Below are positions 42,100 to 63,903 of a stretch of DNA of 64,000 nucleotides, one piece after another. Location: contig CAUJCN010000002.1 of assembly GCA_963169855.1 (NCBI GenBank), positions 369,154 through 433,153 on the forward strand, written 5' to 3'. Each line of letters begins with the position of its first letter. Within the stretch, counting starts at the first letter, position 1. Below the pieces are notes generated by a model. It had not been told where the DNA came from, searched no databases, and saw nothing but the letters and a program-made list of their open reading frames with translations. This DNA comes from Patescibacteria group bacterium (GTDB taxonomy: Bacteria; Patescibacteriota; Dojkabacteria; J137). The translations under genes were made by a program, and so were the position numbers.

Positions 42100-42113
42100 G
42101 TTCTTTGTTCCTA

Positions 42114-42686: not shown

Positions 42687-42688
42687 AT

Positions 42689-43042: not shown

Positions 43043-43044
43043 GT

Positions 43045-43599: not shown

Positions 43600-43600
43600 C

Positions 43601-43993: not shown

Positions 43994-44003
43994 TTCTTAA
44001 ATA

Positions 44004-44216
44004 TTAAAAGCTATATTTTGCTACTCCAGGTAATTCTCCTGAAAGTGCTAATTTTCTAAAACAAATTCTGCACATCTTGAATCTTCGAACATAACTTCTT
44101 GGTCTTCCGCAAATCGCACATCTGTGTTTCAATCTCACTGTTTTAAAATGAGTATTTCCATTTTGAGTCTTGCCCAAGTTCTTTTTGTATTTTGCTATCG
44201 CTGCTTTGTTTGCCAT
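44004..44216 (-). CDS. rpsZ: Ribosomal protein S14, type Z (zinc-binding)
   Basis: CxxC...CxxC (CAICGR ... CRICFR) in a roughly 70-aa protein. Confidence 0.85.
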
Positions 44217-44276
44217 AAAAACCTTTGAATTATATCATCAAAAATCCTAAATCTGAATACAGATTTACTAAATAAA

Positions 44277-44828
44277 TTATTTTCTCTTTCTTTCGAAAGG
44301 CATTCCTAACAATTCCAAAAGTCTGAATGCTTGCTCCTTATTCTTTGCAGTTGTGTTTACAACAACTTGTAAAGATCTGATCTTCACTAATGTCGATGTA
44401 TCGATTTCAGGGAAAATAGTATGTTCCTTAATTCCCATAGTGTAATTTCCTCTAGAGTCGAAAGATTTAGCGGAAACTCCTCTAAAGTCCTTAATTCTAG
44501 GTAAAGTTACATTCACTAGTTTGTCTAAAAAGCTCCACATCTTTTCACCTCTTAGGGTTACTTTGACACCGTTGGGAGTACCTTCTCTTAATTTAAAGTT
44601 TGCAATAGCTTCTGCTGAGTTTACAATCACTGGTTTTTGTCCAGTAATTTGCTGAATAACAGCACTCATTTCATCCGCTACAGCTGTGTTTGTCTTGTAT
44701 TCACTTCCAATTCCTGCGTTCACAACAATTTTGCTTAATGTTGGAATAGCAAAAGTATTATCAATTCCAAATTCTGATTTTAGTTTTGCTGCAATTTCTT
44801 TTTTGTATGTTTCTTTTAAATCTGACAT
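44277..44828 (-). CDS. rplE: Ribosomal protein L5
   Basis: Conserved L5 core (NxxxxPxxxKIVVNxG). Confidence 0.9.
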   Translation of the reverse strand: MSDLKETYKKEIAAKLKSEFGIDNTFAIPTLSKIVVNAGIGSEYKTNTAVADEMSAVIQQITGQKPVIVNSAEAIANFKLREGTPNGVKVTLRGEKMWSFLDKLVNVTLPRIKDFRGVSAKSFDSRGNYTMGIKEHTIFPEIDTSTLVKIRSLQVVVNTTAKNKEQAFRLLELLGMPFERKRK

Positions 44829-44833
44829 GTTAT

Positions 44834-45166
44834 TTATTTAACTAATTCTCCGCTTTTCTTAAAAAATCTTACTTTCTTTCCAGTTTTTTCATCAACTTTA
44901 ATTCCAACTCTACTAGGCTTATTAGTCTTAGTATCTAGGATCATTACGTTTGATGCATCAATTGGCTTTTCCATTTCGATGATTCCACCTTTGATTCCTA
45001 ACTGTTGATTAGGTTTCTGAGCTTTCTTTACAATATTCACACCTTTGATCACAACTTTAACTTTCTTTGTTTCCTTGTCTACAATAACTCGTTCGATTTC
45101 ACCTTGCTTTCCAGCATCTTTTCCTCTCATCACTTGTACTTTGTCTCCTTTTAAAATCTTATTCAT
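44834..45166 (-). CDS. rplX: Ribosomal protein L24
   Basis: KOW motif KGDKVQVMRGKDAGKQG. Confidence 0.85.
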   Translation of the reverse strand: MNKILKGDKVQVMRGKDAGKQGEIERVIVDKETKKVKVVIKGVNIVKKAQKPNQQLGIKGGIIEMEKPIDASNVMILDTKTNKPSRVGIKVDEKTGKKVRFFKKSGELVK

Positions 45167-45172
45167 ATACTT

Positions 45173-45556
45173 TTATAAAACTTCTGGTGCCATTGAAATA
45201 ATTTTATTGAATCCTTTGTCCTTAAGCTCTCTAGCAATTGGACCAAAAATTCTACTTCCCTTAGGATCTTTTGTTTCCTTTGCGATAATCGCTGCTGCGT
45301 TTTCGTCAAATTTAATATGTGATCCATCCTTTCTTCTCATTTCCTTCTTACATCTGATTACAACAGCATGAACAACATCTCCCTTTTTATAGTTAGAGTT
45401 TGGTAATGCTTTCTTAACTGATGCACTGATAATATCTCCTACATATCCGAATTTAGAGAAAGTTCTTCCTTTCTTAACTCCTAATACCTGGATAACCATA
45501 ATTTCCTTTGCTCCTGTATTATCTGCTACTTTTAGTCTTGTTAATTTCTGTACCAT
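45173..45556 (-). CDS. rplN: Ribosomal protein L14
   Basis: [20 protein letters not shown]-terminus. Confidence 0.9.
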
Positions 45557-45560
45557 GTTA

Positions 45561-45806
45561 TTATTTAATTTTTTTTACAAATACCCAACTCTTTCGTGGG
45601 GAAATCTTTCTTCCTTCCTGAATGTCTACAACATCTCCTACTGCTAATTCTTTTGAATCTGCAATATGCACAATGTAATTCTTGTGTTCTTTAACAGTTT
45701 TTCCGTATTTTGGGTGAGCGTATTTCTTTTCTACTTTAACCTTAACTGTGTTAGGAGTAGAAATCTTTACAACTGTTCCTGTTAATTGTTTTTTCTTAGT
45801 TTCCAT
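45561..45806 (-). CDS. rpsQ: Ribosomal protein S17
   Basis: OB-fold pattern GTVVK...KTVKVKV. Confidence 0.85.
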
Positions 45807-45987
45807 TTTCTTTAGTTAATAATCTTGCGATTTCTTTTTTTAATTTTTTAACTTTAGATGTGTTTTTTTCCTGACCCATCTTAACATCAAGAGTTAGTTT
45901 TACTAATTCTTTTTTGTATTCAGCAACACTCTTTACACCTGTATCATTGCTTTCTGCTTTTGTCTTTTTTACTGCTTTCTCTGCCAT
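45796..45987 (-). CDS. rpmC: Ribosomal protein L29
   Basis: Position between rplP and rpsQ, plus a helical Lys-rich sequence. Confidence 0.7.
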   Translation of the reverse strand: MAEKAVKKTKAESNDTGVKSVAEYKKELVKLTLDVKMGQEKNTSKVKKLKKEIARLLTKENGN

Positions 45988-45990
45988 GTT

Positions 45991-46407
45991 TTAGAATGTA
46001 ATGTGTTTGTTAATTACTCTTGTCTTTAAAGATAACTTTCTTGATGCTCTTTCTAAAGCTTCTCTACATGTTGCTTCTGGTAGTCCTCCGATCTCGAATA
46101 AAACTAATCCAGGTTTAACAACTGCAACAAAGTGATCAACTGGTCCTTTACCTCCTCCTCTTACAACTTCGTCACTTTTCTTAGTAACTGGTTTGTGTGG
46201 GAAAAGTTTGATCCAAATCTTTCCTTTTCTTGCTGTAAAGTTAACCATAGCCTTTCTAGCTGATTCAATTTCTCTTGCATGTACCCATCCTCTTTCTAAT
46301 GATTGTAATCCAAAGTCTCCGTATGCAACTTCTGATCCTCTCAAAGCAATACCGTTCATGCTTCCTCTAAATTCTTTTGTATATTTTCGTTTCTTTGGTT
46401 GTAACAT
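45991..46407 (-). CDS. rplP: Ribosomal protein L16
   Basis: MLQPKKRKYTKEFRG N-terminus. Confidence 0.9.
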   Translation of the reverse strand: MLQPKKRKYTKEFRGSMNGIALRGSEVAYGDFGLQSLERGWVHAREIESARKAMVNFTARKGKIWIKLFPHKPVTKKSDEVVRGGGKGPVDHFVAVVKPGLVLFEIGGLPEATCREALERASRKLSLKTRVINKHITF

Positions 46408-46412
46408 AATGT

Positions 46413-47069
46413 TTAGTCAATCGCGTATGTATTTTTTTCTCCTTTATTAATCCAAACCTTAATTCCATGTTTTCCAGCTCTAGGTACTTGTCCTTCTACA
46501 TTAGCGTAGTCAATATCAGCTCTAATAGTGTGTCTTGGAACAAATCCCCAAGATACTTTTTCTACTCTAGCCATATCAGCTCCCTTAATTCTTCCTCCTA
46601 CCCAAATTGTGATTCCTTTAATCAATCCTGTAGCTTTTGCTGCATCTGCTGCTTTTTGCATAGCCATCTTTGGATTAATTCTCTTCTCACATTGAGCAGC
46701 AATGTTTTCTGCAACTAGTTTAGCAATGATGTCAGGGTTTTTAACCTCGAAAGGTTTCACCTCAACTGGTTGATTCACTAGTTTTGTTAATTCATCTTTA
46801 AATGCTGTAATTCCAGCACCGCTTCTTCCGATTACAACTCCAGGTCTTGCTACGTATAATTCAACAACAATCTTATTAACCATTCTCTTAATAACAACAG
46901 AAGCTACGCCTGCTGCTTTTAGCTTTTCGTTTACAAGCTTCTTAATCTTTCTGTCTACCAAGAATTTGTCTGCATAAGTTTCCTTATTGGCATACCATCT
47001 TGATGTCCAATTTTTATTTACTCCAACTCTAAATCCTACTGGATTTACTTTGTGCGAACCTCTAGCCAT
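46413..47069 (-). CDS. rpsC: Ribosomal protein S3
   Basis: KH domain plus C-terminal domain, with a GHKVNPVGFR-like N-terminus. Confidence 0.9.
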   Translation of the reverse strand: MARGSHKVNPVGFRVGVNKNWTSRWYANKETYADKFLVDRKIKKLVNEKLKAAGVASVVIKRMVNKIVVELYVARPGVVIGRSGAGITAFKDELTKLVNQPVEVKPFEVKNPDIIAKLVAENIAAQCEKRINPKMAMQKAADAAKATGLIKGITIWVGGRIKGADMARVEKVSWGFVPRHTIRADIDYANVEGQVPRAGKHGIKVWINKGEKNTYAID

Positions 47070-47180
47070 AATGTTGTTAATTTATTAAGTTGATTAAATG
47101 CTTGTTTAATAAAACCAGCATTGCAATCCTAATACAATTTATGTGAATAAATGCGATAGGATTATATCATTTAGATACCT

Positions 47181-47636
47181 TTATTTGCTACTAGTTTTAG
47201 ACTTTGTAGCTGTTTTTTTAACGGTCTTAGAGACCTCTTTCTTTCCTTCTTCCTTAGACTTTTCCTCTTCTTTATCTTCAGTTTTTGATTTTTTTGAAAC
47301 TATTTCATCACTAACCACAACAGTTAGGTTTGTTACCCCTCTATTCCAGATCGAATATCCTGCTCCTCTTGCCTTTGGATGTCCGTGGCTAATTCTTATT
47401 GCTCCTTTATCAACTCTTAATTCTTTAATGTATAAATCATTAACAGACGCACCTTTGTTAGTTGCATTAGCTGCTGCCGATTTCAATGCCTTATAAACAT
47501 GTACCGCTGTGCCTTTGTTCATGAACTTTAAAACATTCAATGCTTCGTATACTTTCATTCCCTTAACAACTTCTGCAGGGATTCGCATCTTCTTCATTGA
47601 TTTTCCTATATTGTTTATTATTGCTTTGCTCTCCAT
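47181..47636 (-). CDS. rplV: Ribosomal protein L22 with a roughly 40-aa Lys/Glu-rich C-terminal tail
   Basis: L22 core (AVHVYKALKSAAANA...ISHGHPKARG). Confidence 0.85.
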   Translation of the reverse strand: MESKAIINNIGKSMKKMRIPAEVVKGMKVYEALNVLKFMNKGTAVHVYKALKSAAANATNKGASVNDLYIKELRVDKGAIRISHGHPKARGAGYSIWNRGVTNLTVVVSDEIVSKKSKTEDKEEEKSKEEGKKEVSKTVKKTATKSKTSSK

Positions 47637-47649
47637 ATTATTTATTTAA

Positions 47650-47943
47650 TTATTTTGCACCAGGTGCTGCTGCTGCGATCTTACCTTTTTTACTATGTCC
47701 ACTAAACTTTCTTGTGAATGAAAATTCTCCAAGTTTGTGTCCTACCATAGATTCTGTAACGAATACTTTATTAAAGTATTTTCCATTATGAACATCAAAA
47801 GTTAATCCAACCATTTCTGGAGAAATAGTAGATGCTCTTGACCATGTCTTAATAGACTTGTTTCCTCCTGCAATCTTTGCTGCTTTCACTTTTTTCATTA
47901 AAGATTCTTCAATAAAAGGACCTTTCTTTAAACTTCTAGACAT
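47650..47943 (-). CDS. rpsS: Ribosomal protein S19
   Basis: [11 protein letters not shown]-terminus and GHKLGEF. Confidence 0.9.
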
Positions 47944-47948
47944 ATTTC

Positions 47949-48812
47949 TTAAATAATAGTTTTAGTTTTTTTAAATTTATTTGTTTCAGGTCTTCTCCTG
48001 ATGATGAACTTAGTTGTTGGGTTCTTCATTCTTCTTGTTCTCTTTCCGATCATGTTACCCCATGGGTCTGACTTAGGTCCTCCTGTTCCGTGTCTACCTC
48101 CCTTTCCTTGTCCTCCAGCGTGAGGGTGTTTTGTAGACATAGCTACTCCTCTAACTGTTGGTCTAACTCCCTTCAATCTGTTTCTTCCAGCTTTTCCTAA
48201 TTTTACATTCTTCTGATCTTGATTACTTACAAATCCGATAGATGCAAAACATTCTTCTTTTACCAATCTTAATTCTCCACTTGGCATTTTCAACTGAGTA
48301 TATCCTTGGTCTCCTCCCATCACTTGAATTCTTGTTCCAGCTGATCTAGCAATTTTTGCCCCACCGTTTGGATACAGTTCAACAGAGTGAACAAAAGTTC
48401 CCTGAGGAATATTCTTTAGTTTTAATGAGTTTCCTAATGAAACTGGTGCATTTTCTGAGTTAATTACTTTGTCTCCAATCTTTAATCCATCTGGTGCTAG
48501 AATATACTTTCTATCTCCATCAACATACTTTACCAAAGCAATGAATGCTGTTCTATTTGGATCGTATTCAACTGTTTCAATAGTTCCTTCTACGTTCTGC
48601 TTAACTCTTTTAAAATCGATAACTCTGTATGATTTCTTAACTCCTGCCCCCTGGTGTCTCATTGTAATTCGACCTAGGTTATTTCTTCCACCCTTGCTTC
48701 TCAATTCTTCAGTTAGGCCTCTAAAAGGTCTTACTTTTGACAATTCTTTTCTGTCAATTAGCACTGCATGTCTTACGCCTGCACTTGTTGGTTTAAATTT
48801 TCTTAGTGCCAT
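47949..48812 (-). CDS. rplB: Ribosomal protein L2
   Basis: GGGQKQ-like [12 protein letters not shown] motif and the N-terminal RNA-binding domain. Confidence 0.92.
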
Positions 48813-48825
48813 ATCTATTAATTAA

Positions 48826-49104
48826 TTATTTCTCTAATAATTCAAATTTATCTTTTTCAGAAAGTTTGAAAAGCATGATTTTTCTATCTTTATGCTTTAC
48901 AGTATTTCCAGATACTCTATCTCTTTTGTACTTTCCCATTCTACTTGTTGATTTCACTTCAACTACCTTTACTCCGTAAATACTTTCAAATTCTCTTTTT
49001 GCATTTGTCTTAGTAGCATTTACATCTACTTCGAAAGATACATATTTATTTGTCTTGTATTCTGTAATTGATTTTTCTGTTACAACTGGTTTCTTTAGTA
49101 TCAT
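48826..49104 (-). CDS. rplW: Ribosomal protein L23
   Basis: Size, position and pattern (ILKKPVVTEKS). Confidence 0.85.
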   Translation of the reverse strand: MILKKPVVTEKSITEYKTNKYVSFEVDVNATKTNAKREFESIYGVKVVEVKSTSRMGKYKRDRVSGNTVKHKDRKIMLFKLSEKDKFELLEK

Positions 49105-49721
49105 AAACTTCTTTCCTTTAAGTTATTTAATGCTGACTCTTCTATAATCAGGTGTCCTGCGTTTAGAAGATCATAAACATTTACTTCTCCTGAAAATACA
49201 ACTTTGACATTCTGTAAGTTTGCGAATGCTTTCATAACATTCTCTTCAACTTTACTTGTTACTAAAGTTACTTTCTTAGGGGAGTTAAACGCCTCTAAAA
49301 TCTTAGTAGCATCCTTAGCAGATGGCTTTACATCGAAATTTTCTACAACAGAAACTGATCCATCTTTGAAAATCTTACTTAAAGCTGTCTTCAACGCTAC
49401 TTTCTTGAATTTCTTATTCAAATCCTTACTCCAATTAACTTCACTTGAAGGTCCGTGTGCTCTTCCTCCTCCTTTCCAAATTGGTGATCTATTTGATCCC
49501 GCTCTAGCATTACCTGTTCCTTTTTGTGCCCATGGTTTCTTTCCTCCTCCGCTTACTTCTGCTTTAGTCTTTGTATTAGCATTTCCTTGTCTCTGATTTG
49601 CCAAGTAAACAAAAACATATTGAGTTAATACTCTTGTATTTTGTTCCGCAGCAAAGATTGAATCATCTAATTCAATTTCTTTTACTTTCTTATTTTTCAA
49701 ATCTACTAAATCTGTTTTCAT
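49101..49721 (-). CDS. rplD: Ribosomal protein L4
   Basis: Position plus the GGGKKPWAQKGTGNARAGS motif. Confidence 0.85.
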   Translation of the reverse strand: MKTDLVDLKNKKVKEIELDDSIFAAEQNTRVLTQYVFVYLANQRQGNANTKTKAEVSGGGKKPWAQKGTGNARAGSNRSPIWKGGGRAHGPSSEVNWSKDLNKKFKKVALKTALSKIFKDGSVSVVENFDVKPSAKDATKILEAFNSPKKVTLVTSKVEENVMKAFANLQNVKVVFSGEVNVYDLLNAGHLIIEESALNNLKERSL

Positions 49722-49728
49722 ATTCTAA

Positions 49729-50334
49729 TTACTTTGATTTAATAACTACATAAGTACCTCTTGCTCCTGGAATAGAACCTTTGATTCCGATAATTCCATT
49801 TGCTACATCAATGTGTTCAACTTTTAATCCTAAGATTGTCTTAGCTCTTGTTCCCATGTGTCCTCCCATTTTCTTTCCTTTGAAAACTCTACCAGGAATA
49901 GCTCTTGATCCTAATGATCCTGGTGCTCTTTCTCTGTCAGATGAACCGTGTGTTCTAGGCATTCCTGCGAATCCCCATCTCTTAACAACTCCTTGAAATC
50001 CTTTACCTTTTGTTACTCCTGATACAGAAACTTTATCTCCTAATTCGAATACATCAGCGTTTAATTTCTGTCCTACTTCAAAATTTACAGCTTCAGAAAG
50101 TGTAAATGTTTCTTTGAATCTTGGAACAAAGTTAATTGCTTTGTAAATTCCTTCTTCTGCCTTAGTAGTTGCTTTTCTAGAATCTTTAGCAAGTTCATAT
50201 TGATTCTTAGCTCCTGATTTTCCTACCTTACTTACAACATTACCTGAAACATCAAATACAGTTACTACAACTGCTTCTCCGTTGTCTTTGTAAATTTGTG
50301 TCATTCCGATTTTCTTTGCTAGGATTGCTTTCAT
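49729..50334 (-). CDS. rplC: Ribosomal protein L3
   Basis: MKAILAKKIGMTQI N-terminus and FQGVVKRWGF. Confidence 0.9.
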   Translation of the reverse strand: MKAILAKKIGMTQIYKDNGEAVVVTVFDVSGNVVSKVGKSGAKNQYELAKDSRKATTKAEEGIYKAINFVPRFKETFTLSEAVNFEVGQKLNADVFELGDKVSVSGVTKGKGFQGVVKRWGFAGMPRTHGSSDRERAPGSLGSRAIPGRVFKGKKMGGHMGTRAKTILGLKVEHIDVANGIIGIKGSIPGARGTYVVIKSK

Positions 50335-50345
50335 AAAATTCTCAA

Positions 50346-50648
50346 TTAACTTTTGATCTGAACCTCTATACCTGCAGGAAGTTGCATATGAGAAAGAGCT
50401 TCAATCGTCTTTACATTAAAATCAATTACATCTAAAAGTCTTGTATGTTCAAATAACTTGAAATGCTCCTTATGTTTACCATCGATATGTGGTCCTCTGT
50501 GAATAGCCATGCTCCATTTCTTTGTAGGAAGTGGGATTGGACCTTTTACTTTAGCTCCAGCATCTATTACGGCCTTTGCAATATCCATCGTTGCTTTATC
50601 AACAACTTTGAAGTCAAATCCTTTTATTTTAACTCTTATTTTTTGCAT
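50346..50648 (-). CDS. rpsJ: Ribosomal protein S10
   Basis: IRVKIKGFD...GPIPLPTK pattern. Confidence 0.9.
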   Translation of the reverse strand: MQKIRVKIKGFDFKVVDKATMDIAKAVIDAGAKVKGPIPLPTKKWSMAIHRGPHIDGKHKEHFKLFEHTRLLDVIDFNVKTIEALSHMQLPAGIEVQIKS

Positions 50649-50703
50649 TCTTATTTATTTAAAGATCTATCTTCTATTCTGTGCCTTCGATTATAACAAA
50701 CAA

Positions 50704-50747
50704 AGGCTCAGAATAAAAGCCCCGTAATAGAATTTTCTATTACGGGG
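50704..50747 (-). terminator. Intrinsic terminator or attenuator between tuf and rpsJ: an 11-bp stem (ccccgtaatag/ctattacgggg) followed by a U-tract on the minus strand
   Basis: Perfect inverted repeat followed by GCTTTTATT in the transcribed orientation. Confidence 0.55.
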
Positions 50748-50761
50748 ACTCTTAGTTTCTA

Positions 50762-51955
50762 TTAGCTTACAATTGATGTGATTACTCCAGCTCCAACTGT
50801 TCTTCCTCCTTCTCTAATAGCGAAGGTCATCTGCTCTTCTAGAGCAACTTTAGTTCCCAATCTGATTTCTGCTGTGATGTTATCACCAGGCATAACTAAT
50901 TGAGTTCCTTCTGCAAGAATAACTTCTCCAGTTACATCTGCAGTTCCGATGTAGAATTGTGGTTTGTATCCAGATCCAAATCCTGTATGTCTTCCACCTT
51001 CGTCTTTTGACAAGATGTAAACTTCAGCTTTGAATGCAGTATGAGGTTTAATTGAACCCTTAGCTGCTAATACCTGACCTCTTTCGATATCTTCTCTCTT
51101 GATTCCTCTGATTAACAATCCAACGTTATCTCCAGCCTGTCCTTCAGTCATCTGCTTCTTGAACATTTCAACTCCAGTAATAGTTACTTCTTTTGCAGTG
51201 TCCATCAAACCGATTTGCTCTACAACGTCGTTAACTTTAACTTTTCCTCTTCCGATTCTTCCAGTTGCAACTGTTCCTCTTCCTTCGATTGAGAACACGT
51301 CTTCAACCTGCATTAGGAATGGCTTGTCAACTTCTCTTTCTGGCATTGGGATAGTTTCGTCCATAGCCGCAAGTAACGCTGCCATAGTTTCGTCTCCGTC
51401 CTTTTCTCCAGTAGTTCCGTATAAAGCAGATCCTACTACGAATGGAACTTTGTCTGCATCGTATCCATACTTCTTCATTAGGTCCTTCATTTCTTCCTTG
51501 ATCAATTCAAGTAAGTCCATGTCTGTATTGTCATCAAATCTATTGATGAAAACAACCAAGTGCTTTACTCCAACTTGATTAGCAAGTAATAAGTGCTCCT
51601 TAGTCTGAGGCATAGGTCCGTCAGCTGCTGAAACAACGATAATAGCTCCGTCCATTTGAGCTGCACCAGTAATCATGTTCTTGATGTAGTCCTTGTGTCC
51701 TGGACAGTCGATATGTGCGTAATGTCTTGTCTCTGATTCATATTCAACGTGTGAAGATGCAACAGTAACGATCTTGTTAGATCCAGCTCTAGCAATACCT
51801 CCCTTAGCGATATCAGAATAGGATTTTCCTGAGTTCTGCCATCCCTTTCTTTGAGAGTATGAAACTAAAGCAGCTGTCAAAGTTGTCTTTCCGTGGTCGA
51901 TGTGACCTAGAGTTCCGACATTTACGTGTGGCTTTGATCTTACGAAGTCTGCCAT
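50762..51955 (-). CDS. tuf: Elongation factor Tu
   Basis: G1 [11 protein letters not shown]3 DCPGH, G4 NKFD (NRFD here), and full-length EF-Tu domains 2 and 3. Confidence 0.95.
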
Positions 51956-55680: not shown

Positions 55681-56358
55681 TTATAGTTCAATCTTTAATG
55701 GATTTTCATCGAATAAGCTGTCTCTAACTTCAAGAGTTAATCTGCTAGGATTTCCTTCAACATAGAAAGCAATTTTTCCTCTGAAAGTTTCTCCGGCTCC
55801 GATTTCTCTGTCTAGTCTTAGAGCTTCATCGATTGGGTAGAAGAAGTCTTGGGACAATGTGTTTCCATCTTCATCTACTAATGAAAGGAACAAGATCGTA
55901 CTGAATGTTGTTGAATCAGATCCGTTATTTCTAACATCTAGTGTTATTACTGCATCGTTTCCATCTTGTTCAACAGATACTACATCAACAGAAAATCTGC
56001 CCTCTGCCTGTAGTCCACCAAAAAGATCTCCAAGTCCGCCAGTTGTAGAATTATCGTTTCCACCTGTCGTTGAGTTATTGTTTCCTCCTGTTGTCGAATC
56101 ACTTCCCCCCGTTGTAGTTAAAGTATATGGGAATTCGTTTGCAAAGTTTGTTATTGTATCTGCAGCTGTTCTAAAAAAGAAATACCAGATAGCCAAAGCT
56201 CCCAAACAGCAAATTACTAGTAATCCTACGATTGCTAGAATAATCCAAAGAGCCTTGTTTCCTCCTTTCTTTTCTACTTTTGTAGTAGTTGTTGTAGTCT
56301 CTGGCTTTGAATCTGCCTTAGTTTCAGCTACAACTTCTGTTGTTTTTGTTTCCTCCAT
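55681..56358 (-). CDS. Membrane-anchored DUF4352-like protein with an (N/D)STTGGN repeat linker
   Basis: N-terminal TM, then a Gly/Thr/Asn repeat region, then a C-terminal beta-sandwich pattern (FSVDVVSVEQDGNDAVITLDVRNNG...GKIAFYVEG) typical of DUF4352. Confidence 0.5.
   Translation of the reverse strand: MEETKTTEVVAETKADSKPETTTTTTKVEKKGGNKALWIILAIVGLLVICCLGALAIWYFFFRTAADTITNFANEFPYTLTTTGGSDSTTGGNNNSTTGGNDNSTTGGLGDLFGGLQAEGRFSVDVVSVEQDGNDAVITLDVRNNGSDSTTFSTILFLSLVDEDGNTLSQDFFYPIDEALRLDREIGAGETFRGKIAFYVEGNPSRLTLEVRDSLFDENPLKIEL
56035..56115. repeat. Imperfect tandem repeat of about 24 nt (roughly 3.5 copies) encoding the NSTTGGN(D/N) repeats inside the 55681-56358 gene
   Basis: cca-GTTGTAGAATTATCGTTTCC / acc-tGTCGTTGAGTTATTGTTTCC / tcc-tGTTGTCGAATCACTTCC. 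Confidence 0.45.
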
Positions 56359-56415
56359 AGAAGCTTATTAATAAAATATATATTATGTTAGTATTATTGT
56401 AATAATAACTTTTTT

Positions 56416-58395
56416 ATGAAAATATTTGTAGGTTTCCTCTCACTTTTTCTCGCCTTTTCGACTTTTGCAATTCCTGTTCAGGCAGCTCCAACATTCCGCT
56501 ATGATTACTACGATGTAACTATAGACATTAATAAAGATTCAACTTTCATTGTAGAAGAATCTGCGAAACTTTTGATTAATGGTGAATTTCATGGGCTAAG
56601 AAGAGACATTCCAACAGACAATTTTTGTACTGTCGGAACCCAAACCTGCGGAGGTTTTAGGCAGTTAGAAATACTAGAAATCAGAGATGTTAATGGGAAA
56701 ATTTTAAACCAAGACCAATACTCTCTTTACAATTATGAAGACGAAGATACTAAAGAAAACTATTTAAGAATTGAAAGAGAACTTTTTCCTGATGGGGAGT
56801 TCGTTACAAATTATTCTGAAGGTTGGACTATAAAATACAAGGTTTACGGTGGGTTAGGATTTTTAGATGAAGGAATTTATTTTTATTGGAATACATTGCC
56901 AGAAAACCGAGGAGGTTTTACAGACAAATCAACTATAAAGATTAACCTTCCATCAGAAGCAAGACGAAATGATTTTCAACTTTTCGATATAAATACTCAC
57001 TCAGCAAATACTTCTTATACATCTAGAGGAATTCAAATTGATATTACAAATTTATCTAGTATCAGTAATTTTACAGTCGCATATAGATTTAATGAAAATG
57101 AAATAAATCTTCCAGCAACATTGAAAATGAACTTGGCTCCGTCTGTGGGAACTACAGTTATGCTTGATAGTTTAACATTCGACAGTTGGGATGGAGTCGC
57201 AGATTATTTACCTGCGGGTGATTTCAACATGAAAGTTTCCCATTTTGGTTACTACGATTTAGTCATGCCAGTTAAATTGGAATCAGGGAAAGTTACAGAC
57301 CTTGGAACAGTTGCACTTTCCCCCACTCCGATTATGGGAATATTTACATTCTTTTCGAACATCTTTTTAATCTTCTGTTGCGTGAGTATTCCTTTGGCTA
57401 TATTTATTGCCTATTGGATTTATGACAAGAATGGACGAGATAAAAATCCTCTTAAAACTATTATTCCTCTATTCTCTCCGCCAGAAAATGTAAGACCTTA
57501 TCTTGCAAGTAATTTATACTTCGAAGAATTCAAGAAAAAGATTATCTCTGCAACAATTGTTGATTTAGCAGTTCGTGGATTTATTAAAATCAAAGAGGAA
57601 AGTAAAAATAACTTCACTTTAACTCGAATTGAAGATGAAGCTAAATATGGTGAACTAACACAAAGGGAAAACGATATTATTTCTTTAATTTTTGATGATA
57701 GTTATGAAGTCAATACTTCTACTTTCAAAACCCCTTCAAACGAAAGAGCTAAGAAATATCAAAGCTTAATTCAGGAAAGTTACAACGAATTAGTAAGTTT
57801 GGGTTACTTTAACGCTTCTCCTCAAATTACTAGAGCAAAATATACAACATACTCGATTTTATTAATCATACTTGGCATAGTAGCGTTTATCGGAGGTAGC
57901 TTAGTTCTAACAACTGTAATTGGTGTTGTTTTCTTATGTATTCCTGGAATTTGGATTGCTATTTTTGGAATATCAATTGGAGTAATCGCAAGACACATGC
58001 CTTCTAAATCGGAAACTGGAAGCAAGATCTACAATCATTTACAAGGTTTCAGAATGTATTTGTATACAGCTGAAAGATTCAGACTACAAGGCTTGGATCC
58101 AGAAGAGTTTGAAAAGTACCTTCCTTTCGCTATGATTTTTGATATTGAAAAGCAATGGGCTGAGAAGTTCAAAGATCTATACAATCATCAACCAGAATGG
58201 CTAGAAGGAAACTTCTCAACATTTGATGCTATTTACTTAGCTAACGCAATGGGAAGCTTCTCTAGTTCGGTTAACACATCATCGCTTGGTGCAGGAGTAA
58301 GCAATACTTCTGGAAGCGGCTGGAGCGGTGGTGGAGGTTCATTTGGTGGATTCTCTGGAGGCGGAGGTGGAGGAGGTTCTTCCGGAGCTTGGTAA
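56416..58395 (+). CDS. DUF2207-family membrane protein with a Gly-rich C-terminal tail
   Basis: Signal peptide, a roughly 270-aa exported domain, TM helices, a cytoplasmic domain, and the tail GSGWSGGGGSFGGFSGGGGGGGSSGAW, which is the typical DUF2207 architecture. Confidence 0.7.
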   Translation: MKIFVGFLSLFLAFSTFAIPVQAAPTFRYDYYDVTIDINKDSTFIVEESAKLLINGEFHGLRRDIPTDNFCTVGTQTCGGFRQLEILEIRDVNGKILNQDQYSLYNYEDEDTKENYLRIERELFPDGEFVTNYSEGWTIKYKVYGGLGFLDEGIYFYWNTLPENRGGFTDKSTIKINLPSEARRNDFQLFDINTHSANTSYTSRGIQIDITNLSSISNFTVAYRFNENEINLPATLKMNLAPSVGTTVMLDSLTFDSWDGVADYLPAGDFNMKVSHFGYYDLVMPVKLESGKVTDLGTVALSPTPIMGIFTFFSNIFLIFCCVSIPLAIFIAYWIYDKNGRDKNPLKTIIPLFSPPENVRPYLASNLYFEEFKKKIISATIVDLAVRGFIKIKEESKNNFTLTRIEDEAKYGELTQRENDIISLIFDDSYEVNTSTFKTPSNERAKKYQSLIQESYNELVSLGYFNASPQITRAKYTTYSILLIILGIVAFIGGSLVLTTVIGVVFLCIPGIWIAIFGISIGVIARHMPSKSETGSKIYNHLQGFRMYLYTAERFRLQGLDPEEFEKYLPFAMIFDIEKQWAEKFKDLYNHQPEWLEGNFSTFDAIYLANAMGSFSSSVNTSSLGAGVSNTSGSGWSGGGGSFGGFSGGGGGGGSSGAW

Positions 58396-58429: not shown

Positions 58430-59251
58430 CTATTCAGCAAATTGTTCAACGAGTTGCTCGATAGTCAATGCATCTTCAACCTTATATTCTCCAATTCGAG
58501 TTCTTCTAAGGTTTATCAACATTGAAGGCATATCAAATTTCTGTCCAATATCGTATGCTAACTGACGGATATACGTTCCCTTACTGCAGCTTACATCCAC
58601 AGTTACTGCTAGCTTTGTGAAGTCCTGCTCTTTTATACTAAATTTTCGTTCTTTGAAATCTGTAACTTTGATTTCTGGAATAGTGATTTCTCTTTTACTG
58701 ACTTCAACTTCTTTCTTCTTTTCGTTACCTGAGTAAAAACTAATTTTTTGACTAGTTTCTAAGTCCTCTAACTCAAATCGTTCATATTTTCTTGCCAGTT
58801 CCCTAAGTTTATCGCCATTAATCTTAACTGAACTGAAAACCGGAACTGCCTGCATAGTTTTACCCACAAAGCTGTTAATACTTTTTTTCACATCATCGTT
58901 GAATTCGTCAATTCCGCCATACCGATTCATTACTTCAATATCCTCTTGAACATTACCTTCTGGGTCGTGAGAATCCGTCGAAACTCCAAACGCAATCTCT
59001 GCTAAATAGCTTTTATCAAATCCCATAAATTCATCAGATTTCTTTGTAGCCTTACCAACAAGAATAATTAACAACCCTGAGGCGAAAGGATCCAAAGTTC
59101 CAGCATGTCCAACCGCTTTAGTTTTGAAGATTTTTCTGACTTTATCGACAACATCGTGTGAAGTAATTCCTACTGGTTTATCTATTAAAAATATACCTGA
59201 AATTCGGTCCAAATCATCTCGATACAATTTGTTGATCGTAATATTTTCCAT
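58430..59251 (-). CDS. truB: tRNA pseudouridine(55) synthase TruB
   Basis: Catalytic motif GHAGTLDPFASGLL and the overall TruB length. Confidence 0.85.
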   Translation of the reverse strand: MENITINKLYRDDLDRISGIFLIDKPVGITSHDVVDKVRKIFKTKAVGHAGTLDPFASGLLIILVGKATKKSDEFMGFDKSYLAEIAFGVSTDSHDPEGNVQEDIEVMNRYGGIDEFNDDVKKSINSFVGKTMQAVPVFSSVKINGDKLRELARKYERFELEDLETSQKISFYSGNEKKKEVEVSKREITIPEIKVTDFKERKFSIKEQDFTKLAVTVDVSCSKGTYIRQLAYDIGQKFDMPSMLINLRRTRIGEYKVEDALTIEQLVEQFAE

Positions 59252-59312: not shown

Positions 59313-59660
59313 ATGGCATACGATTATCAAGAAGAGGAGAAAAGAAAGGATAATTTGATAAAAGAAATCGGAGATAAAATTAAAACTGCTCGAGTTGAAA
59401 GCAAAATGTCTCAGCTTCAAGTTGCTGTATCGCTAGGAGTTTCAGATAAAACAATTAGCGGATATGAATCTGGAAGAATCGCCCCACCAATCGATAAGTT
59501 AATTCAAGTCGCTGAAATATTCCGAAAACCAATCACTTACTTTCTTAGTAACGACCCTAGAGATTACAAGGTTTCTTCACGTTTAAAAGCAATCGAGCAA
59601 ATTCTAAAAGATGTTAGAAAGCAAATGGAGGAAATCAAAGAAATCGCCGGAGTTGATTAA
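59313..59660 (+). CDS. XRE-family helix-turn-helix transcriptional regulator (about 115 aa). The start is trimmed to the internal Met so that it clears truB.
   Basis: HTH region SQLQVAVSLGVSDKTISGYESG. The longer ORF-track version overlaps truB on the opposite strand. Confidence 0.7.
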   Translation: MAYDYQEEEKRKDNLIKEIGDKIKTARVESKMSQLQVAVSLGVSDKTISGYESGRIAPPIDKLIQVAEIFRKPITYFLSNDPRDYKVSSRLKAIEQILKDVRKQMEEIKEIAGVD

Positions 59661-62395
59661 GGAATAACCCCTTGCTCTCTAATCGAATATGGGTATCGAC
59701 CCAGATCATCCATGAATGTAAGAAGATATCTTGGATCAGCATAGATCAGTAGCGAAGGCTTAGATAAATTATCTGTATTCACAAAAGTTGCTGAATCTGT
59801 AATGCTTCCTCTTGTTGCTAAGTTTCCGACTAAGAACATTCCTAATGCTGTAGAACCAGCCCTTGAAATTGTTATGTTTCCATCAGCGAAAATACTTGCT
59901 TCGAATAATCCATAGGTACTCTGCTCAGGTGAGCTAGGAAATTTAGATCGAGAACTTGTTGGAGCATGATTGATAAGGCTAACCGATCCCTGAACTACAT
60001 AAATACATCCATTATAAACTCCTGCAGTTGGGTGTTCGGTGATTTGATAATCAGAGTGAATCGTTAAGTTACCTGAAATTACAAATATCGACCGCATGTT
60101 GCAATTAGTCCTACTGTTCAAAGTAACATTACCGTTAACAATGTAGTTTCTTTTTTCGTTTGCTGCACCAGCAACTGCAGTGTTAATTGCAACTGTTGCA
60201 GATGCCGAACCTGGCGTGGTAGTTGTAAACCCTGCCCTTGTCGTTACAGGAGTTGTTGAATTTTGCACTTTCTCCAAGAAATACGAATACCAACTAGTTC
60301 CTGTTGGTGGTTGTAGTCCAAGATCATCATAAGCACCTACATACTGAGTTCTTTGAGAAATGTATGCGGATGGTAAAGCCGTAGATCCTAGAAGGAATGC
60401 ATATGCAGTTGTATGAGGTTGTCGAATGTCTGAAGCGTCATCCAAACTGAACAACTGGCTGTAGTTTGTAATTTGAGGGATTACAGAACCGCCCAGAACG
60501 TTTCCAATTGATGCATTGCTGTTAAACACTGATACCCATGGGCTTGGTAAACCTGTGACTACCAGTTGGAATCCGCCTCTGTTACAAGACAAATCTTCTA
60601 CTTCTAATGTGAAAGTGTAGTTACTATTTACTCCAGAATTTTGATCTCTATATGCGTAAGTGGTATTTGTAGCGTTAGATAAGGAGAGATATGCTGATAA
60701 ATTTGATGGCGCAGGTTGTGTTGTTGGAACAGGATTGATTGTAGCTCCGGATGGATAATTCTCCTGCAGTCTATCCCCAGCCGCATTTGAATGTACTGCA
60801 GTTAGGAAGGTCGTATTCGGTCTTAATCCCAAAGAATCGAATGGTCTCCAGGTGATGTTGAAAGAGCTATCAGGATTATTTGCTGTAGCAATTGTTGGAG
60901 TTGGCGTAGTTGTATCGATGTATAAAATTTGTGTTGTCTTCATGTATCGCAGGTCTGCAGATACATTTGTCTGATTTATGTCTCCTGAATACTCAGTTAT
61001 AATTGTTTGACCTTGTCCATTTACTCTAGATCTAGTAAAGATGAACATCGAATAAAGGTTATAGTGACTAAAGAATGCACTAGTTGGGTTAGTATTGTTG
61101 TTTGGGAAATTATCGTTAATTCTTATCCTGAATCTTGCAACTACTGTTCTAGAACCGTCTCCATTATTAGTTAGTGTAACATTTGTAGCCGAACCAATAC
61201 CCAGAACTATTGCATTTCCGTCTATATTATTTATATGATCTCCGCTTGTAGCATTTGGAGAATATACCCCTGCAGGATTGCTTGTTGAGACTTCCCGTAC
61301 AGATAAAGTGTTGTCAATATTATACCTCACACCTAATGTCCTTCTGTTCTCTACTTTATTCTGAATTTGGATATCAGTAAAACGTTGTGCTTCTGAGTTA
61401 CTAGCTCCAGTTGGAATAAACGACAAATAAATATTCTTGAAATCCCCTACTGAATCGGGATCAACCCAAGTTACTTCTATATCAATTGGATTCTGAATTA
61501 TTGTACTTGAAGCCGTATATTTTCCGATTCTCCTTAAGTCTGCTCCACAGGTAGCAACTTCTCCTCCATTTAAAGGGTTTAGAATTCTAGTTGAGGTTAA
61601 TACTGGCCTAGCATCGGTTGAGAATTTCCAAATTTGAGAATATGCTTGCGAATTTGAATTCGACTTTCTAATAAACCAACAATATGTCGCCCCGTAGTCT
61701 AAATCATTGCCAGTATATAAAATGTTCCTACTTGCAGCACTTCCACCAGAAATACTATCTAATTCAAAGAAAGTGCTTCTTGTTTCACTTCCACATGCTG
61801 TTGTTGAAGGGACTTTTTTAACAAAAAGAGTATAGTTCCGTACTTGTGGTATACAAGGATTATTTACCTGTCCCCAGTCAACATCATTGGATGTATTTCC
61901 TCCACTAGCGACTCTGTTCCATTGAAAATTGATTCTCTTAGGATTAAGTCCCACTGATTGATTTGCTGGTCCAATAAGTGTCTGTGCTCCGAAAGAAACG
62001 CTTCCAGGGTTGTTACAACCTGGTGGGGGGTCTGGCGGACTCCCCGAGCTACCTCCACTTGGACATGAACCACAAGTTAAGGTCCCATCTGAGCAAACAG
62101 TCTTCGGTCTACAACCCGAGGCAGTGTATACAGTAAATCCATTTGCAGCAGCTTCGCAGGCACCGGTCCCATAATCAAACTGAGTACATACAAAACAAGA
62201 ATTTACATAAGCGCATTGGTCGGCTGCACATGAATTTGAATCTCTACAAGAGAAATTCGTGCTTAAGTTATCTCCAGAGCAACACACCAAAGCTGCTTCG
62301 ACGGTAGGACTATACAGCTGTCCCGAAAAGAATATACCTAATGCTAGGAATATCCCTCCTAATGTTTTTACAAATTTTTGCAAATTCAAATGCAT
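59657..62395 (-). CDS. Large secreted or surface protein (912 aa) with an N-terminal Cys-rich module, an FN3-like domain and a Thr/Ser/Asn-rich beta-rich body
   Basis: Signal peptide. The Cys-cluster region is CCSGDN...CRDSNSC...CAYVNSCFVCTQ...C...C...CGSC. The FN3-like pattern is PANQS...FQWN...YTLFV...YCWFIRKSN...IWKFST. Confidence 0.6.
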   Translation of the reverse strand: MHLNLQKFVKTLGGIFLALGIFFSGQLYSPTVEAALVCCSGDNLSTNFSCRDSNSCAADQCAYVNSCFVCTQFDYGTGACEAAANGFTVYTASGCRPKTVCSDGTLTCGSCPSGGSSGSPPDPPPGCNNPGSVSFGAQTLIGPANQSVGLNPKRINFQWNRVASGGNTSNDVDWGQVNNPCIPQVRNYTLFVKKVPSTTACGSETRSTFFELDSISGGSAASRNILYTGNDLDYGATYCWFIRKSNSNSQAYSQIWKFSTDARPVLTSTRILNPLNGGEVATCGADLRRIGKYTASSTIIQNPIDIEVTWVDPDSVGDFKNIYLSFIPTGASNSEAQRFTDIQIQNKVENRRTLGVRYNIDNTLSVREVSTSNPAGVYSPNATSGDHINNIDGNAIVLGIGSATNVTLTNNGDGSRTVVARFRIRINDNFPNNNTNPTSAFFSHYNLYSMFIFTRSRVNGQGQTIITEYSGDINQTNVSADLRYMKTTQILYIDTTTPTPTIATANNPDSSFNITWRPFDSLGLRPNTTFLTAVHSNAAGDRLQENYPSGATINPVPTTQPAPSNLSAYLSLSNATNTTYAYRDQNSGVNSNYTFTLEVEDLSCNRGGFQLVVTGLPSPWVSVFNSNASIGNVLGGSVIPQITNYSQLFSLDDASDIRQPHTTAYAFLLGSTALPSAYISQRTQYVGAYDDLGLQPPTGTSWYSYFLEKVQNSTTPVTTRAGFTTTTPGSASATVAINTAVAGAANEKRNYIVNGNVTLNSRTNCNMRSIFVISGNLTIHSDYQITEHPTAGVYNGCIYVVQGSVSLINHAPTSSRSKFPSSPEQSTYGLFEASIFADGNITISRAGSTALGMFLVGNLATRGSITDSATFVNTDNLSKPSLLIYADPRYLLTFMDDLGRYPYSIREQGVIP

Positions 62396-62799
62396 CTAAA
62401 TTTCTGAATAATATTTAGTGGCTTAAACTCATCGTCAAAATACAACCCTGTTAAGTTATTTTCTATTTTTGCTAGAGCCAAGTCGATTTTAATCTGAATT
62501 GTGTTACAGTTCTGATTAAAAATCAAATTTGCATCGTCAGCAAATACCCCATCTGACGCTGATAAAATATCTCTGTTCAAGTATACCTCCGTCTTGCTTC
62601 CATTCAAATCAAGATAGAGCAATCCTCCTTTCCAATCAGTTTCTATAGAATCCCTGTTTATATTGTACACAAGTACAGTAGAGTTAGCCATAGAGTCTAC
62701 TTCTGTCGAAAAGGATTGATTCTGAATATTTAAAATTCCTCCTACAAGGAATAGGATCGAAATTGCAACCAGAACAATCGACAATACATTAGTTCTCAT
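62386..62799 (-). CDS. Small N-terminally anchored exported protein (137 aa)
   Basis: A single N-terminal TM helix followed by a beta-rich domain. Overlaps both the upstream and downstream ORFs by 10 nt. Confidence 0.45.
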   Translation of the reverse strand: MRTNVLSIVLVAISILFLVGGILNIQNQSFSTEVDSMANSTVLVYNINRDSIETDWKGGLLYLDLNGSKTEVYLNRDILSASDGVFADDANLIFNQNCNTIQIKIDLALAKIENNLTGLYFDDEFKPLNIIQKFRCI

Positions 62800-63199
62800 T
62801 TGTGATGAAACTAATATCTAAAATCTCTTTATTACCATCGTTATAGTTAGCTTCGACGATGCTAACTCTTCCTGTTTCTTGGGATCCCTCTAAATATTCA
62901 GAAACTAGAAGTTCAGGAATAATAAATGATCGCTCTTCCTGCCCGTTGCTAACAATAATTTCTAAACCTTGATCTTGATATCTAGCAGTCTGAATTCCAC
63001 CAACAAATGTATTTTCTACATAGCTTCCTGATAATACTGGGTTTCTTGGATGCAACCAATAATTTTTGCTAAAGTCTGTATTTACCGCTGTAACGGTTGA
63101 ATTATAGTTGACCAAAGTTATCAAGTAAAAACTTGCTGTGGCAAACAAAACGATTAGCGGTAGAATTAGTTTCATAAATCTGAATATCTCTATTTCCAT
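62789..63199 (-). CDS. Small N-terminally anchored exported protein (about 128-136 aa)
   Basis: N-terminal TM followed by an exported domain. First of three overlapping minus-strand genes. Confidence 0.45.
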   Translation of the reverse strand: MEIEIFRFMKLILPLIVLFATASFYLITLVNYNSTVTAVNTDFSKNYWLHPRNPVLSGSYVENTFVGGIQTARYQDQGLEIIVSNGQEERSFIIPELLVSEYLEGSQETGRVSIVEANYNDGNKEILDISFITNEN

Positions 63200-63233: not shown

Positions 63234-63890
63234 TCAGGCAAGAAGATATATTTTTTGAGTTTCCGCTACTGGACGAAAACTTTTTCGGTGAAGATCAGTT
63301 ACTCCAAATTCTTTCAAAGCTGCTTGATGACCTTTAGTTCCATAACCTTTATTCCTATTGAAATTAAATGAAGGAAAAGACTTATGGTATTCAGACATAA
63401 TCAAATCTCTCTCTACTTTTGCAATTATCGATGCAGACCCAACTGAGTAATAATTCATGTCAGCTTTCTTTTCCTTGATAGTATTTTTTGTAAATGGATG
63501 AGCAAACTGACCATCCACAACAAATACACTGTTTGGATAAATCGGATCTAATTCTGAGATTAACTCTAAAATCAAATTCTGAATAGCTTTCCCAATTCCA
63601 CCCTTATCGATTTCACCCCTATCCGCGAATTTTAATCGGAAGTTATCTTGATCTCTTAGTTTTTTAGAAAAGTAAGTTCGTTGTTTCAGATTCAACATTT
63701 TTGAATCTGTAATGCCTTCCAGAAACTTAGTACTAGAATTTATAACGTATGCACCTACATACACCGGTCCTGCCCAACAACCTCTTCCAACTTCGTCGAT
63801 TCCGATTACATTTTCGTATTTTTCAAAAAGTGGAAAATCTTTATAATTCATTTCATTATTATACTCTAGAAAAGAAAGATCCCCAGCCAA
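63234..63890 (-). CDS. rnhB: Ribonuclease HII
   Basis: Catalytic motif GIDEVGRGCWAGPV and the downstream DSK / acidic residues. Confidence 0.9.
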   Translation of the reverse strand: MAGDLSFLEYNNEMNYKDFPLFEKYENVIGIDEVGRGCWAGPVYVGAYVINSSTKFLEGITDSKMLNLKQRTYFSKKLRDQDNFRLKFADRGEIDKGGIGKAIQNLILELISELDPIYPNSVFVVDGQFAHPFTKNTIKEKKADMNYYSVGSASIIAKVERDLIMSEYHKSFPSFNFNRNKGYGTKGHQAALKEFGVTDLHRKSFRPVAETQKIYLLA

Positions 63891-63903
63891 TGGCTGGGGA
63901 TCT
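63860..63903 (-). terminator. Intrinsic terminator upstream of rnhB and downstream of the partial gene: a 12-bp stem (agatccccagcc/ggctggggatct) followed by a U-tract
   Basis: Perfect 12-bp inverted repeat followed by TTCTTTTCT on the minus strand. Confidence 0.5.

Follow-up and report, generated by a model that had tools for sequence, protein, structure and literature searches.

A candidate modular adhesin and two small membrane partner proteins in a Patescibacteria genome

We describe a three-gene module in a 64-kb stretch of DNA from a Patescibacteria group bacterium (contig CAUJCN010000002.1; hereafter, the window, in which all positions are counted). Two small genes on the minus strand, here called S1 and S2, are followed by the gene for a 912-amino-acid protein that we call Big. 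We hold with moderate confidence that this locus of a Saccharibacterium codes for a lectin-type modular adhesin on the cell surface and for two small membrane proteins cognate to it. The evidence supports the view that Big is an adhesin-type stalk protein that is secreted, rich in disulfides and built of beta-sandwiches, and S1 and S2 are its dedicated partners in the genomic sense. As judged from sequence, the module is a plausible host-attachment device. Its gene arrangement is not due to chance: close homologues keep every one of the 20 cysteines of Big, and the same gene order is seen again in relatives that are distant.

For the way in which Saccharibacteria and other Patescibacteria recognize and hold their hosts, genetic work has so far implicated type IV pili and a small number of envelope proteins with lectin or FN3 domains (PMC10633639, PMC11623550). 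In a cultivated Saccharibacterium, several envelope proteins of the latter kind are essential for epibiotic growth (PMC10633639), and genetics in cultivated Saccharibacteria shows that such proteins and type IV pili matter for epibiotic growth and host binding (PMC10633639, PMC11623550). If our reading is correct, the module provides a concrete set of genes to delete, to swap or to use as bait for host receptors, and the C-terminal base of Big, recognizable by its YSIRE motif, would be a sequence signature with which to survey the adhesin repertoires of uncultivated epibionts. Should the adhesin reading prove wrong, what remains is a widespread, unannotated envelope component of the lineage.

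The predicted secreted protein Big and its family

Big (62395..59657, minus strand, stop codon included in the span) begins with a Sec-type signal peptide (residues 1–34; 62294..62395) that has a basic n-region, a 12-residue h-region (LGGIFLALGIFF) and a c-region ending in the cleavage motif VEA/A, in which the slash marks the cleavage position. An earlier sequence-only reading of the window had proposed such a secreted protein and had named a cytoplasmic topology as the outcome that would count against it; the n-h-c signal found here is that of an exported protein. No 19-residue Kyte–Doolittle average in Big exceeds 1.6, so there is no segment of transmembrane (TM) strength. The LPxTG motif (searched as LP.[TSA]G) is absent anywhere in Big, and the C terminus (...YSIREQGVIP) has no hydrophobic segment. 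There is also no lipobox, the signal ending VEA/ALVCC with Ala-Leu-Val before the first Cys; the signals of relatives have AxA and then 1–5 residues before the first Cys. Like Big, the family at large shows an n-h-c signal with a VxA end.

Behind the signal lies a Cys-rich head (residues 35–125; 62021..62293, minus strand), which contains 12 invariant cysteines and is closed off by the CxDGTxTCGSCP motif of the family, with a Pro-rich linker. These cysteines fall within residues 38–111 and are the maximum for any 80-residue span (13 counting C127), short of the 14 or more within about 80 residues that had been counted earlier. The PGCNNPG linker of the sequence-only reading is present at residues 125–131. 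It forms the junction to an FN3-like domain (residues 126–262; 61610..62020, minus strand) that carries a YCWFI(R/K)K strand and two conserved Cys pairs. The stalk (residues 263–745; 60161..61609, minus strand) consists of beta-sandwiches at about 263–480 and 481–615 and a mixed alpha/beta region at 616–745, in which W620, Y689 and W702 are near-invariant. The C-terminal base (residues 746–912 plus the stop codon; 59657..60160, minus strand) has the motifs NGNLTI, C765...C797 and DPRY...YSIRE. Ser, Thr and Asn together make up 30% of Big, in keeping with the Thr/Ser/Asn-rich body described before. All 20 cysteines are invariant among three close homologues (52–70% identity).

An AlphaFold model of Big computed from 73 sequences has a mean predicted local distance difference test (pLDDT) score of 81.4; a 4-sequence input had reached only 37.5. 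Residues ~135–262 are confidently modelled as an FN3-like beta-sandwich, and the base is modelled as short, regularly spaced strands from 746 to ~870, resembling a beta-solenoid, followed by a helix at 889–898. Foldseek searches of PDB and BFVD with Big matched only tandem FN3/Ig stalk proteins (probability ~1.0). These include the LIF receptor and cytokine receptors, fibronectin, integrin legs, the Ig-like domains of PrgB and the MpIBP ice adhesin, as well as phage minor tail, fibre and FN3 proteins. The first domain of Big is predicted to have the beta-sandwich and Trp/Tyr core of the FN3 fold, and its YCWF strand recurs in multi-FN3 proteins. By sequence, Big has no Pfam match even at E ≤ 1, the fn3 profile (PF00041) included, and the family profile gives borderline FN3 matches in PDB (E 0.03–0.4); the first domain is thus predicted to be FN3-like by fold only. 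At the level of fold, structure prediction and Foldseek agree with the FN3-like domain and beta-rich body of the sequence-only reading.

Word-indexed searches, of 5.8 billion proteins, returned only 3–4 close relatives with Big and no relatives with a base-only profile, probably owing to low-complexity words. When 1.84 billion representative proteins were searched exhaustively with the Big profile (HMMER), 207 proteins were found at E ≤ 1e-3, 80 of them at E ≤ 1e-10. One class consists of many proteins of 800–1000 amino acids that align along most of the chain or all of it, at 22–29% identity; the other consists of long multi-repeat proteins that match only residues ~225–285, around the FN3-like YCWxV strand. 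Pattern scans of genomes and of metagenomes found only 2 loci each. Searches of Pfam, NCBIfam, PHROGs and PADLOC gave no match for S1, S2 or Big. All relatives are named 'hypothetical protein' at their source, and the organisms named are Ca. Saccharibacteria and Ca. Dojkabacteria. The closest relatives of the window are metagenome-assembled genomes titled 'uncultured Candidatus Saccharibacteria bacterium'; except for four named records, the taxonomy of relatives was read from shared gene neighbourhoods. Big belongs to an unnamed family that is conserved across Saccharibacteria and reaches Dojkabacteria.

Membership of this family was defined by a ~165-amino-acid C-terminal 'YSIRE base' together with an N-terminal signal peptide. 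Big, the query, has both and aligns throughout. The signature of the base is NGNLTI...C...(I/V)xFVxGNLTIxPDF...NGCxFVVxG...YDxxEA...DG...DGLxIxG...RDL...N..QPA....YDPRY...F...L....YSIRE. A hidden Markov model (HMM) of the base is near-complete in 72 of 154 proteins, and in all 72 it lies no more than 25 residues from the C terminus. Signal-like N termini (Met plus a hydrophobic segment) occur in 53 of these 72 base carriers, most of the others being fragments or miscalled starts, and nearly every full-length carrier has an even number of cysteines. Profile searches of PDB found no sequence relatives of the base.

Most heads in the family are Cys-rich modules ending in CxDGxxTCGxCP and a Pro-rich linker. 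Other members carry on the same base Laminin_G_3/ConA-like domains (three), discoidin F5/8 type C domains (two, up to three copies), a C-type lectin, a Kelch propeller, a sialidase N-terminal lectin or a VWA domain (one each), or fn3 domains (six). The adhesin reading is strengthened because relatives carry lectin and other binding heads on the same base. The scan for head domains covered 60 members with Pfam and 30 with NCBIfam, and in these sets we found no catalytic domain. SLH, WxL and other wall-binding domains were likewise absent from Big and 60 relatives (Pfam/NCBIfam).

S1, S2 and the gene trio

The longest open reading frame (ORF) of S1 spans 63199..62789 on the minus strand (136 amino acids). 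Orthologues place its probable start at Met9 (63175), which shortens S1 from 136 to 128 amino acids (62789..63175). S2 (62386..62799, minus strand) has 137 amino acids, and both are bitopic proteins. The S1, S2 and Big frames overlap by 11 nt and then by 10 nt, much as the sequence-only reading described them (three overlapping minus-strand genes from 63199 to 59657, with overlaps of about 10 nt). Its two proteins of about 135 amino acids with a single N-terminal TM helix are also confirmed: S1 and S2 have one N-terminal hydrophobic helix each (19-residue Kyte–Doolittle mean up to 2.4–2.9) and nothing else hydrophobic. In S1 the helix is followed by a ~100-amino-acid domain, and a (G)YW[LI]xPxN motif is kept just outside the membrane. 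The helix of S2 ends in an invariant Gly and precedes a ~110-amino-acid domain with an invariant Cys pair (C98 and C136), which suggests an extracytoplasmic disulfide as the best explanation.

S1 and S2 are two distinct orphan families. We reject the idea that they are paralogues (hhalign probability 1.3%), and profile searches of PDB with either gave nothing significant. HMMs built from seven orthologues each recognize held-out upstream ORFs in the related loci L012, L014 and L015 at E values of 1e-5 to 1e-7. A resemblance to pilins or pseudopilins had been raised in the sequence-only reading. On sequence grounds we reject S1 and S2 as pilins or as PilN/PilO: they have no INLLP-type or class III motif, no Gly(-1)/Glu(+5) pattern is conserved among the orthologues, none of 14 S1/S2 orthologues matches N_methyl (PF07963) at E ≤ 1, and the HMMs match neither the pilins nor PilN/O of a pilus-linked family locus, L016 (best E 0.08). 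TadE/TadF/TadG (PF07811, PF13400) are not matched by S1, S2 or Big at E ≤ 1.

The order S1-S2-Big is found in 12 of 16 arrangements, which are those examined and not a census, down to about 25% identity (the window, L001, L002/L003, L006, L007, L008, L009 twice, L012, L013, L014 and L015). The frames of the trio nearly always overlap or abut, with a 59-nt gap in L012; the S1 of L013 is cut by the contig end. The gene rnhB stands immediately upstream in most Saccharibacteria loci. In L014 the trio sits behind an ABC-transporter gene instead, so the trio moves as a unit. The co-occurrence of the small genes with Big, which had been put forward as a check, with its absence from all relatives as a refuting outcome, is therefore conserved, also where rnhB is not the neighbour. 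Of the adhesin with dedicated small partners proposed from sequence, the adhesin-type stalk and the synteny stand, and the partners are dedicated in the genomic sense.

Several Big paralogues occur per genome in L009 and L012. In L009 two trios lie next to each other, a LamG head being found in the second, and each Big paralogue has its own S1/S2 pair. This second trio (L009:10515-15251) lies directly downstream of the first and encodes a 1272-amino-acid Big (P0023), the head of which has Laminin_G_3 and Toxin_R_bind_N domains and TSP1-like CSxxCGxG motifs. This shows that the module was duplicated as a whole and in tandem, with an exchange of heads.

Other genes were also seen next to family members. 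A short (~150 amino acids) SufBD-core-like protein is encoded at L010:5349-5804, L009:15284-15730 and L017:8030-8476; in L010 its gene replaces the S1/S2 pair between rnhB and Big. Two loci (L012:11830-13245 and L011:3531-3938) have genes of cupredoxin-like, HMA and DsbD_2 type directly behind a family member, which may be related to disulfide or copper handling for the Cys-rich exported proteins.

The three genes of the module diverge at different rates from each other and from the nearby housekeeping genes. Identity to L002 and L006 is 78 and 57% for rnhB, 70 and 61% for truB and 68 and 52% for Big, and falls to 47 and 20% for S1 and to 49 and 20% for S2. Along Big, identity to L001, L002 and L006 is 59, 53 and 27% in the Cys-rich head, the fastest-evolving part of the protein, 66, 58 and 39% in the FN3-like domain, 72–76, 70–77 and 53–64% in the stalk, and 74, 73 and 53% in the base. 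Divergence is thus fastest in S1, S2 and the distal end of Big. Such a fast distal end with fast partners would be typical of surface proteins that face a changing ligand, or pressure from phages or hosts.

Neighbouring genes

The usual 5′ neighbour of the trio in Saccharibacteria, rnhB (RNase HII, 205 amino acids; 63234..63851, minus strand, ATG at 63851), is preceded by a terminator-like hairpin (63877..63903, minus strand) with a 12-bp stem, 8 G–C pairs and a T-run. The hairpin likely marks the 5′ boundary of the transcription unit. The sequence-only reading had the operon begin after a strong terminator and rnhB; both exist, but the hairpin lies upstream of rnhB and not between rnhB and S1. 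A TATAAT box follows directly after the hairpin, and the rnhB ATG comes ~10 nt further on. This spacing suggests a leaderless or near-leaderless rnhB transcript that starts after the terminator of the upstream gene, which is probably rplS. No terminator was found in the gap between rnhB and S1 (34–58 nt), so rnhB and the trio may be co-transcribed and a four-gene transcript is plausible. Functionally, rnhB does not belong to the module, since L014 has the trio but no rnhB next to it.

On the other side, a gene for a 115-amino-acid XRE-type helix–turn–helix (HTH) protein (59313..59660, plus strand) is divergent from truB and convergent with Big, the two stop codons overlapping by 4 nt. It is probably not in the module. 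The sequence-only reading had taken it to be divergent from the trio, which is an error of orientation, and a possible regulator of it. Nothing in our results supports the HTH protein as a dedicated regulator of the module: its gene is convergent, far more conserved than the trio (94 and 85% identity to L002 and L006) and linked to truB. The convergent overlap of the HTH gene and Big could cause transcriptional interference. In L008 a distance of 7.5 kb separates the HTH–truB pair from Big; an HTH gene is missing from the vicinity of Big in L009 and L014, and in L015 it is upstream of rplS.

The HTH protein is more conserved than the products of rnhB or truB, and its gene adjoins truB in most Saccharibacteria loci, in either orientation. 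The conservation and linkage of the pair (59313-59660 on the plus strand and 58430-59251 on the minus strand) are unusually tight for a small XRE-type regulator. PADLOC matches of the HTH gene are to generic HTH only.

The other scanned ORFs of the window include a ribosomal-protein operon, EF-Tu, SecY, aminoacyl-tRNA synthetases, SHMT and VanY. These are ordinary chromosomal surroundings, and the module is therefore not on an island. Its GC content is slightly raised (0.39 against about 0.35), a rise that fits the amino-acid composition of the encoded proteins.

Elsewhere in the window, positions 42000-51955 have strong negative GC and AT skew and many short minus-strand ORFs. We rejected a giant or recoded gene at 42–51 kb, as the region is the ribosomal-protein (S10/spc) operon plus EF-Tu, in which purine-rich Lys/Arg/Gly codons account for the skew. 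Two further genes near truB, at 55681-58395, encode a DUF2207 membrane protein of 659 amino acids, the C-terminal tail of which is Gly-rich, and a divergent DUF4352 protein that combines an N-terminal TM helix with a Thr/Gly/Asn-rich linker. The pair is kept beside truB in nearly all related loci (L001, L004, L006, L007 and L010–L012) and forms a second conserved envelope gene pair. Three minus-strand ORFs, at 7463-8767 (434 amino acids), 9023-10063 (346 amino acids) and 29853-31391 (512 amino acids), match no Pfam family at E ≤ 1e-5.

Candidate function and known systems

We propose that Big would be exported by Sec and oxidized outside the cell, where the ectodomains of S1 and S2 would hold or assemble its base at the membrane. 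Translational coupling would set a fixed ratio of S1 and S2 to Big. The beta-sandwich stalk would project the fast-evolving Cys-rich head outward, and the head would bind a ligand, most likely a glycan, on the envelope of the host bacterium. That the base is held or assembled by S1 and S2 is probable because Big has no anchor of its own (LPxTG, lipobox or TM). The organism itself belongs to an epibiotic lineage (Ca. Saccharibacteria), which we count in favour of an adhesin. What would be expected of a host-range determinant is seen in the family: its members are predicted to be exported and disulfide-bonded, and have swappable lectin heads on a conserved base, a fast distal end, fast-evolving partners that are cognate to each copy and, in some genomes, several paralogues.

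A broader proposal, which we offer only tentatively, is that S1, S2 and the base constitute an unrecognized, Patescibacteria-specific system for presenting adhesins. The bitopic pair (or, in some lineages, a type IV pilus) would capture the base, and the swappable head, whether Cys-knot, ConA-like, discoidin, C-type lectin, Kelch or VWA, would be a main determinant of host choice. Apart from this proposal, what is new in the family, as compared with known modular adhesins, is the conserved C-terminal base, a polarity reversed with respect to modular pilins, and two dedicated families of bitopic partners.

Several observations weigh against an adhesin with two cognate partners. The anchoring of Big by S1 and S2 is purely inferred, and the adhesin role of every family member is predicted from sequence and model. 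The signal helix and the Cys-rich head (residues 35–125) are modelled with low confidence (head pLDDT about 40–60), and Pfam recognizes no binding domain in the head of Big. L010 and L016 have no S1/S2 pair, and L011 and L017 have a single upstream gene for a TM protein that matches neither the S1 nor the S2 HMM. The vertical conservation of the module and its position among housekeeping genes would also suit a structural role in the envelope. In the cultivated oral Southlakia epibionticum ML1, no trio lies beside rnhB, and for this reason published transposon sequencing gives our preferred reading no direct support.

The alternative that survives best, although we consider it unlikely, is that Big is a PilY1-like adhesin of a type IV pilus. 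After export by Sec, its base would dock to the pilus tip or priming complex and its head would bind, with S1 and S2 as non-canonical adaptors that replace the minor pilins or form a bridge to them. The case for it starts from L016 (GCA_014728495.1, MBD3280761.1), in which a full-length family member from Ca. Dojkabacteria lies, without S1 and S2, in a type IV pilus locus. On one side of this gene is a divergent pilM-pilN-pilO set. On the other is a convergent operon of T2SSE (PilB/T-type ATPase), T2SSF (PilC) and a set of five genes that resemble those of pilins. Three of the five give weak-to-clear N_methyl matches, a fourth has a pilin-like N terminus and a fifth only an N-terminal TM helix; at least two have clear GFTLVELL-type signals. 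Big also shares the layout of PilY1 (a Sec signal, a variable N-terminal adhesive module, which is VWA in one member, and a conserved C terminus), and the large putative tip proteins PilX1 and PilX2 of TM7x also lack PilD-type signals (PMC11623550). However, only 1 of the 16 arrangements is pilus-linked. No type IV pilus gene occurs within 5–10 kb of the trio in Saccharibacteria loci with called genes, or among the scanned ORFs of the 64-kb window. S1 and S2 lack a class III signal, the conserved Glu5 and N_methyl matches, and their HMMs miss the pilins and PilN/O of L016; the base has no beta-propeller and no match to the PilY1/PilC family.

The deposited 731-amino-acid call of the L016 family member (L016:4290-7196) is truncated. 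The same frame continues upstream into a Cys-rich head and a signal peptide that starts with Met, for about 970 amino acids in all, and the 188-amino-acid ORF called there is an out-of-frame artefact.

More doubtful still is a housekeeping role, in which the trio would serve the architecture of its own cell as part of the envelope, for instance as an S-layer-like coat, a wall spacer or a division scaffold. Its place in a vertically conserved block (dnaG, rpmH, rplS, rnhB and truB) across Saccharibacteria, the possible co-transcription with rnhB and the fairly good conservation of stalk and base would suit such a role. Against this, swappable binding heads and several paralogues per genome (L009, L012) are typical of adhesins, S1, S2 and the head diverge faster than the neighbouring housekeeping genes, the cultivated Saccharibacterium has no trio beside rnhB, and neither SLH nor any other wall-binding domain was found. 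We think it very improbable that Big acts as a secreted enzyme or toxin, with S1 and S2 as immunity or maturation factors; one such enzyme would be a polysaccharide lyase or hydrolase of beta-helix fold that attacks the wall of the host. The short, regularly spaced, solenoid-like strands of the base and its near-invariant polar residues (D887, R906 and the Glu of YSIRE) would be compatible with this, but no catalytic family turned up in the members scanned (60 with Pfam, 30 with NCBIfam), the base has no sequence relative in PDB, its ~120-residue solenoid is short for a lyase and an attachment domain fits better, given that variation is seen in the binding modules and conservation at the terminus.

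As a candidate adhesin, Big resembles known modular adhesins in function but, judging by its motifs, is a member of none of their families, as it has no propeller, prepilin signal, LPxTG, lipobox or SLH/WxL; of the defining features examined, it shows only the FN3-like fold, in a single domain. PilY1/PilC proteins of Pseudomonas, Neisseria and Myxococcus are exported by Sec and have a variable adhesive N terminus and a conserved C-terminal domain that is thought to dock. Like these, Big is large, predicted to be Sec-exported and without an anchor of its own, and is encoded beside small proteins with an N-terminal hydrophobic helix. Unlike them, it has a base without a propeller or a PF05567 match, its partners are not prepilins and most of its loci are not close to pilus genes. 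The modular pilins of Streptococcus sanguinis, PilB (VWA) and PilC (ConA-like lectin), carry their modules on a conserved N-terminal pilin domain. They and PilX1 and PilX2 of Nanosynbacter lyticus TM7x (PMC11623550), which are adhesins of monoderms or Patescibacteria, are like the Big family in that lectin, VWA or propeller modules are grafted onto a conserved assembly module. The heads are also of similar kinds (LamG/ConA-like, VWA and Kelch propeller). The polarity differs: theirs is an N-terminal pilin with a C-terminal binder, whereas Big has an N-terminal head, a C-terminal base and no pilin helix.

Stalk adhesins (RTX proteins such as MpIBP, Gram-positive MSCRAMM and PrgB-type proteins, and phage FN3/Ig tail fibres), which rank highest among the Foldseek matches, share with Big a tandem Ig/FN3-like stalk that projects a terminal binding region. 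Big differs in having no RTX/type I secretion or LPxTG signal, a short stalk (3–4 domains), and a Cys-rich head, a base and two bitopic partner genes that are unique to its family. In the Csc/WxL clusters of Lactobacillales, small membrane- or wall-anchored proteins are encoded with larger secreted proteins that attach non-covalently through a conserved C-terminal domain. The trio would resemble these clusters in this combination; no WxL, DUF916 or LPxTG component was detected in it, and the families are unrelated by sequence.

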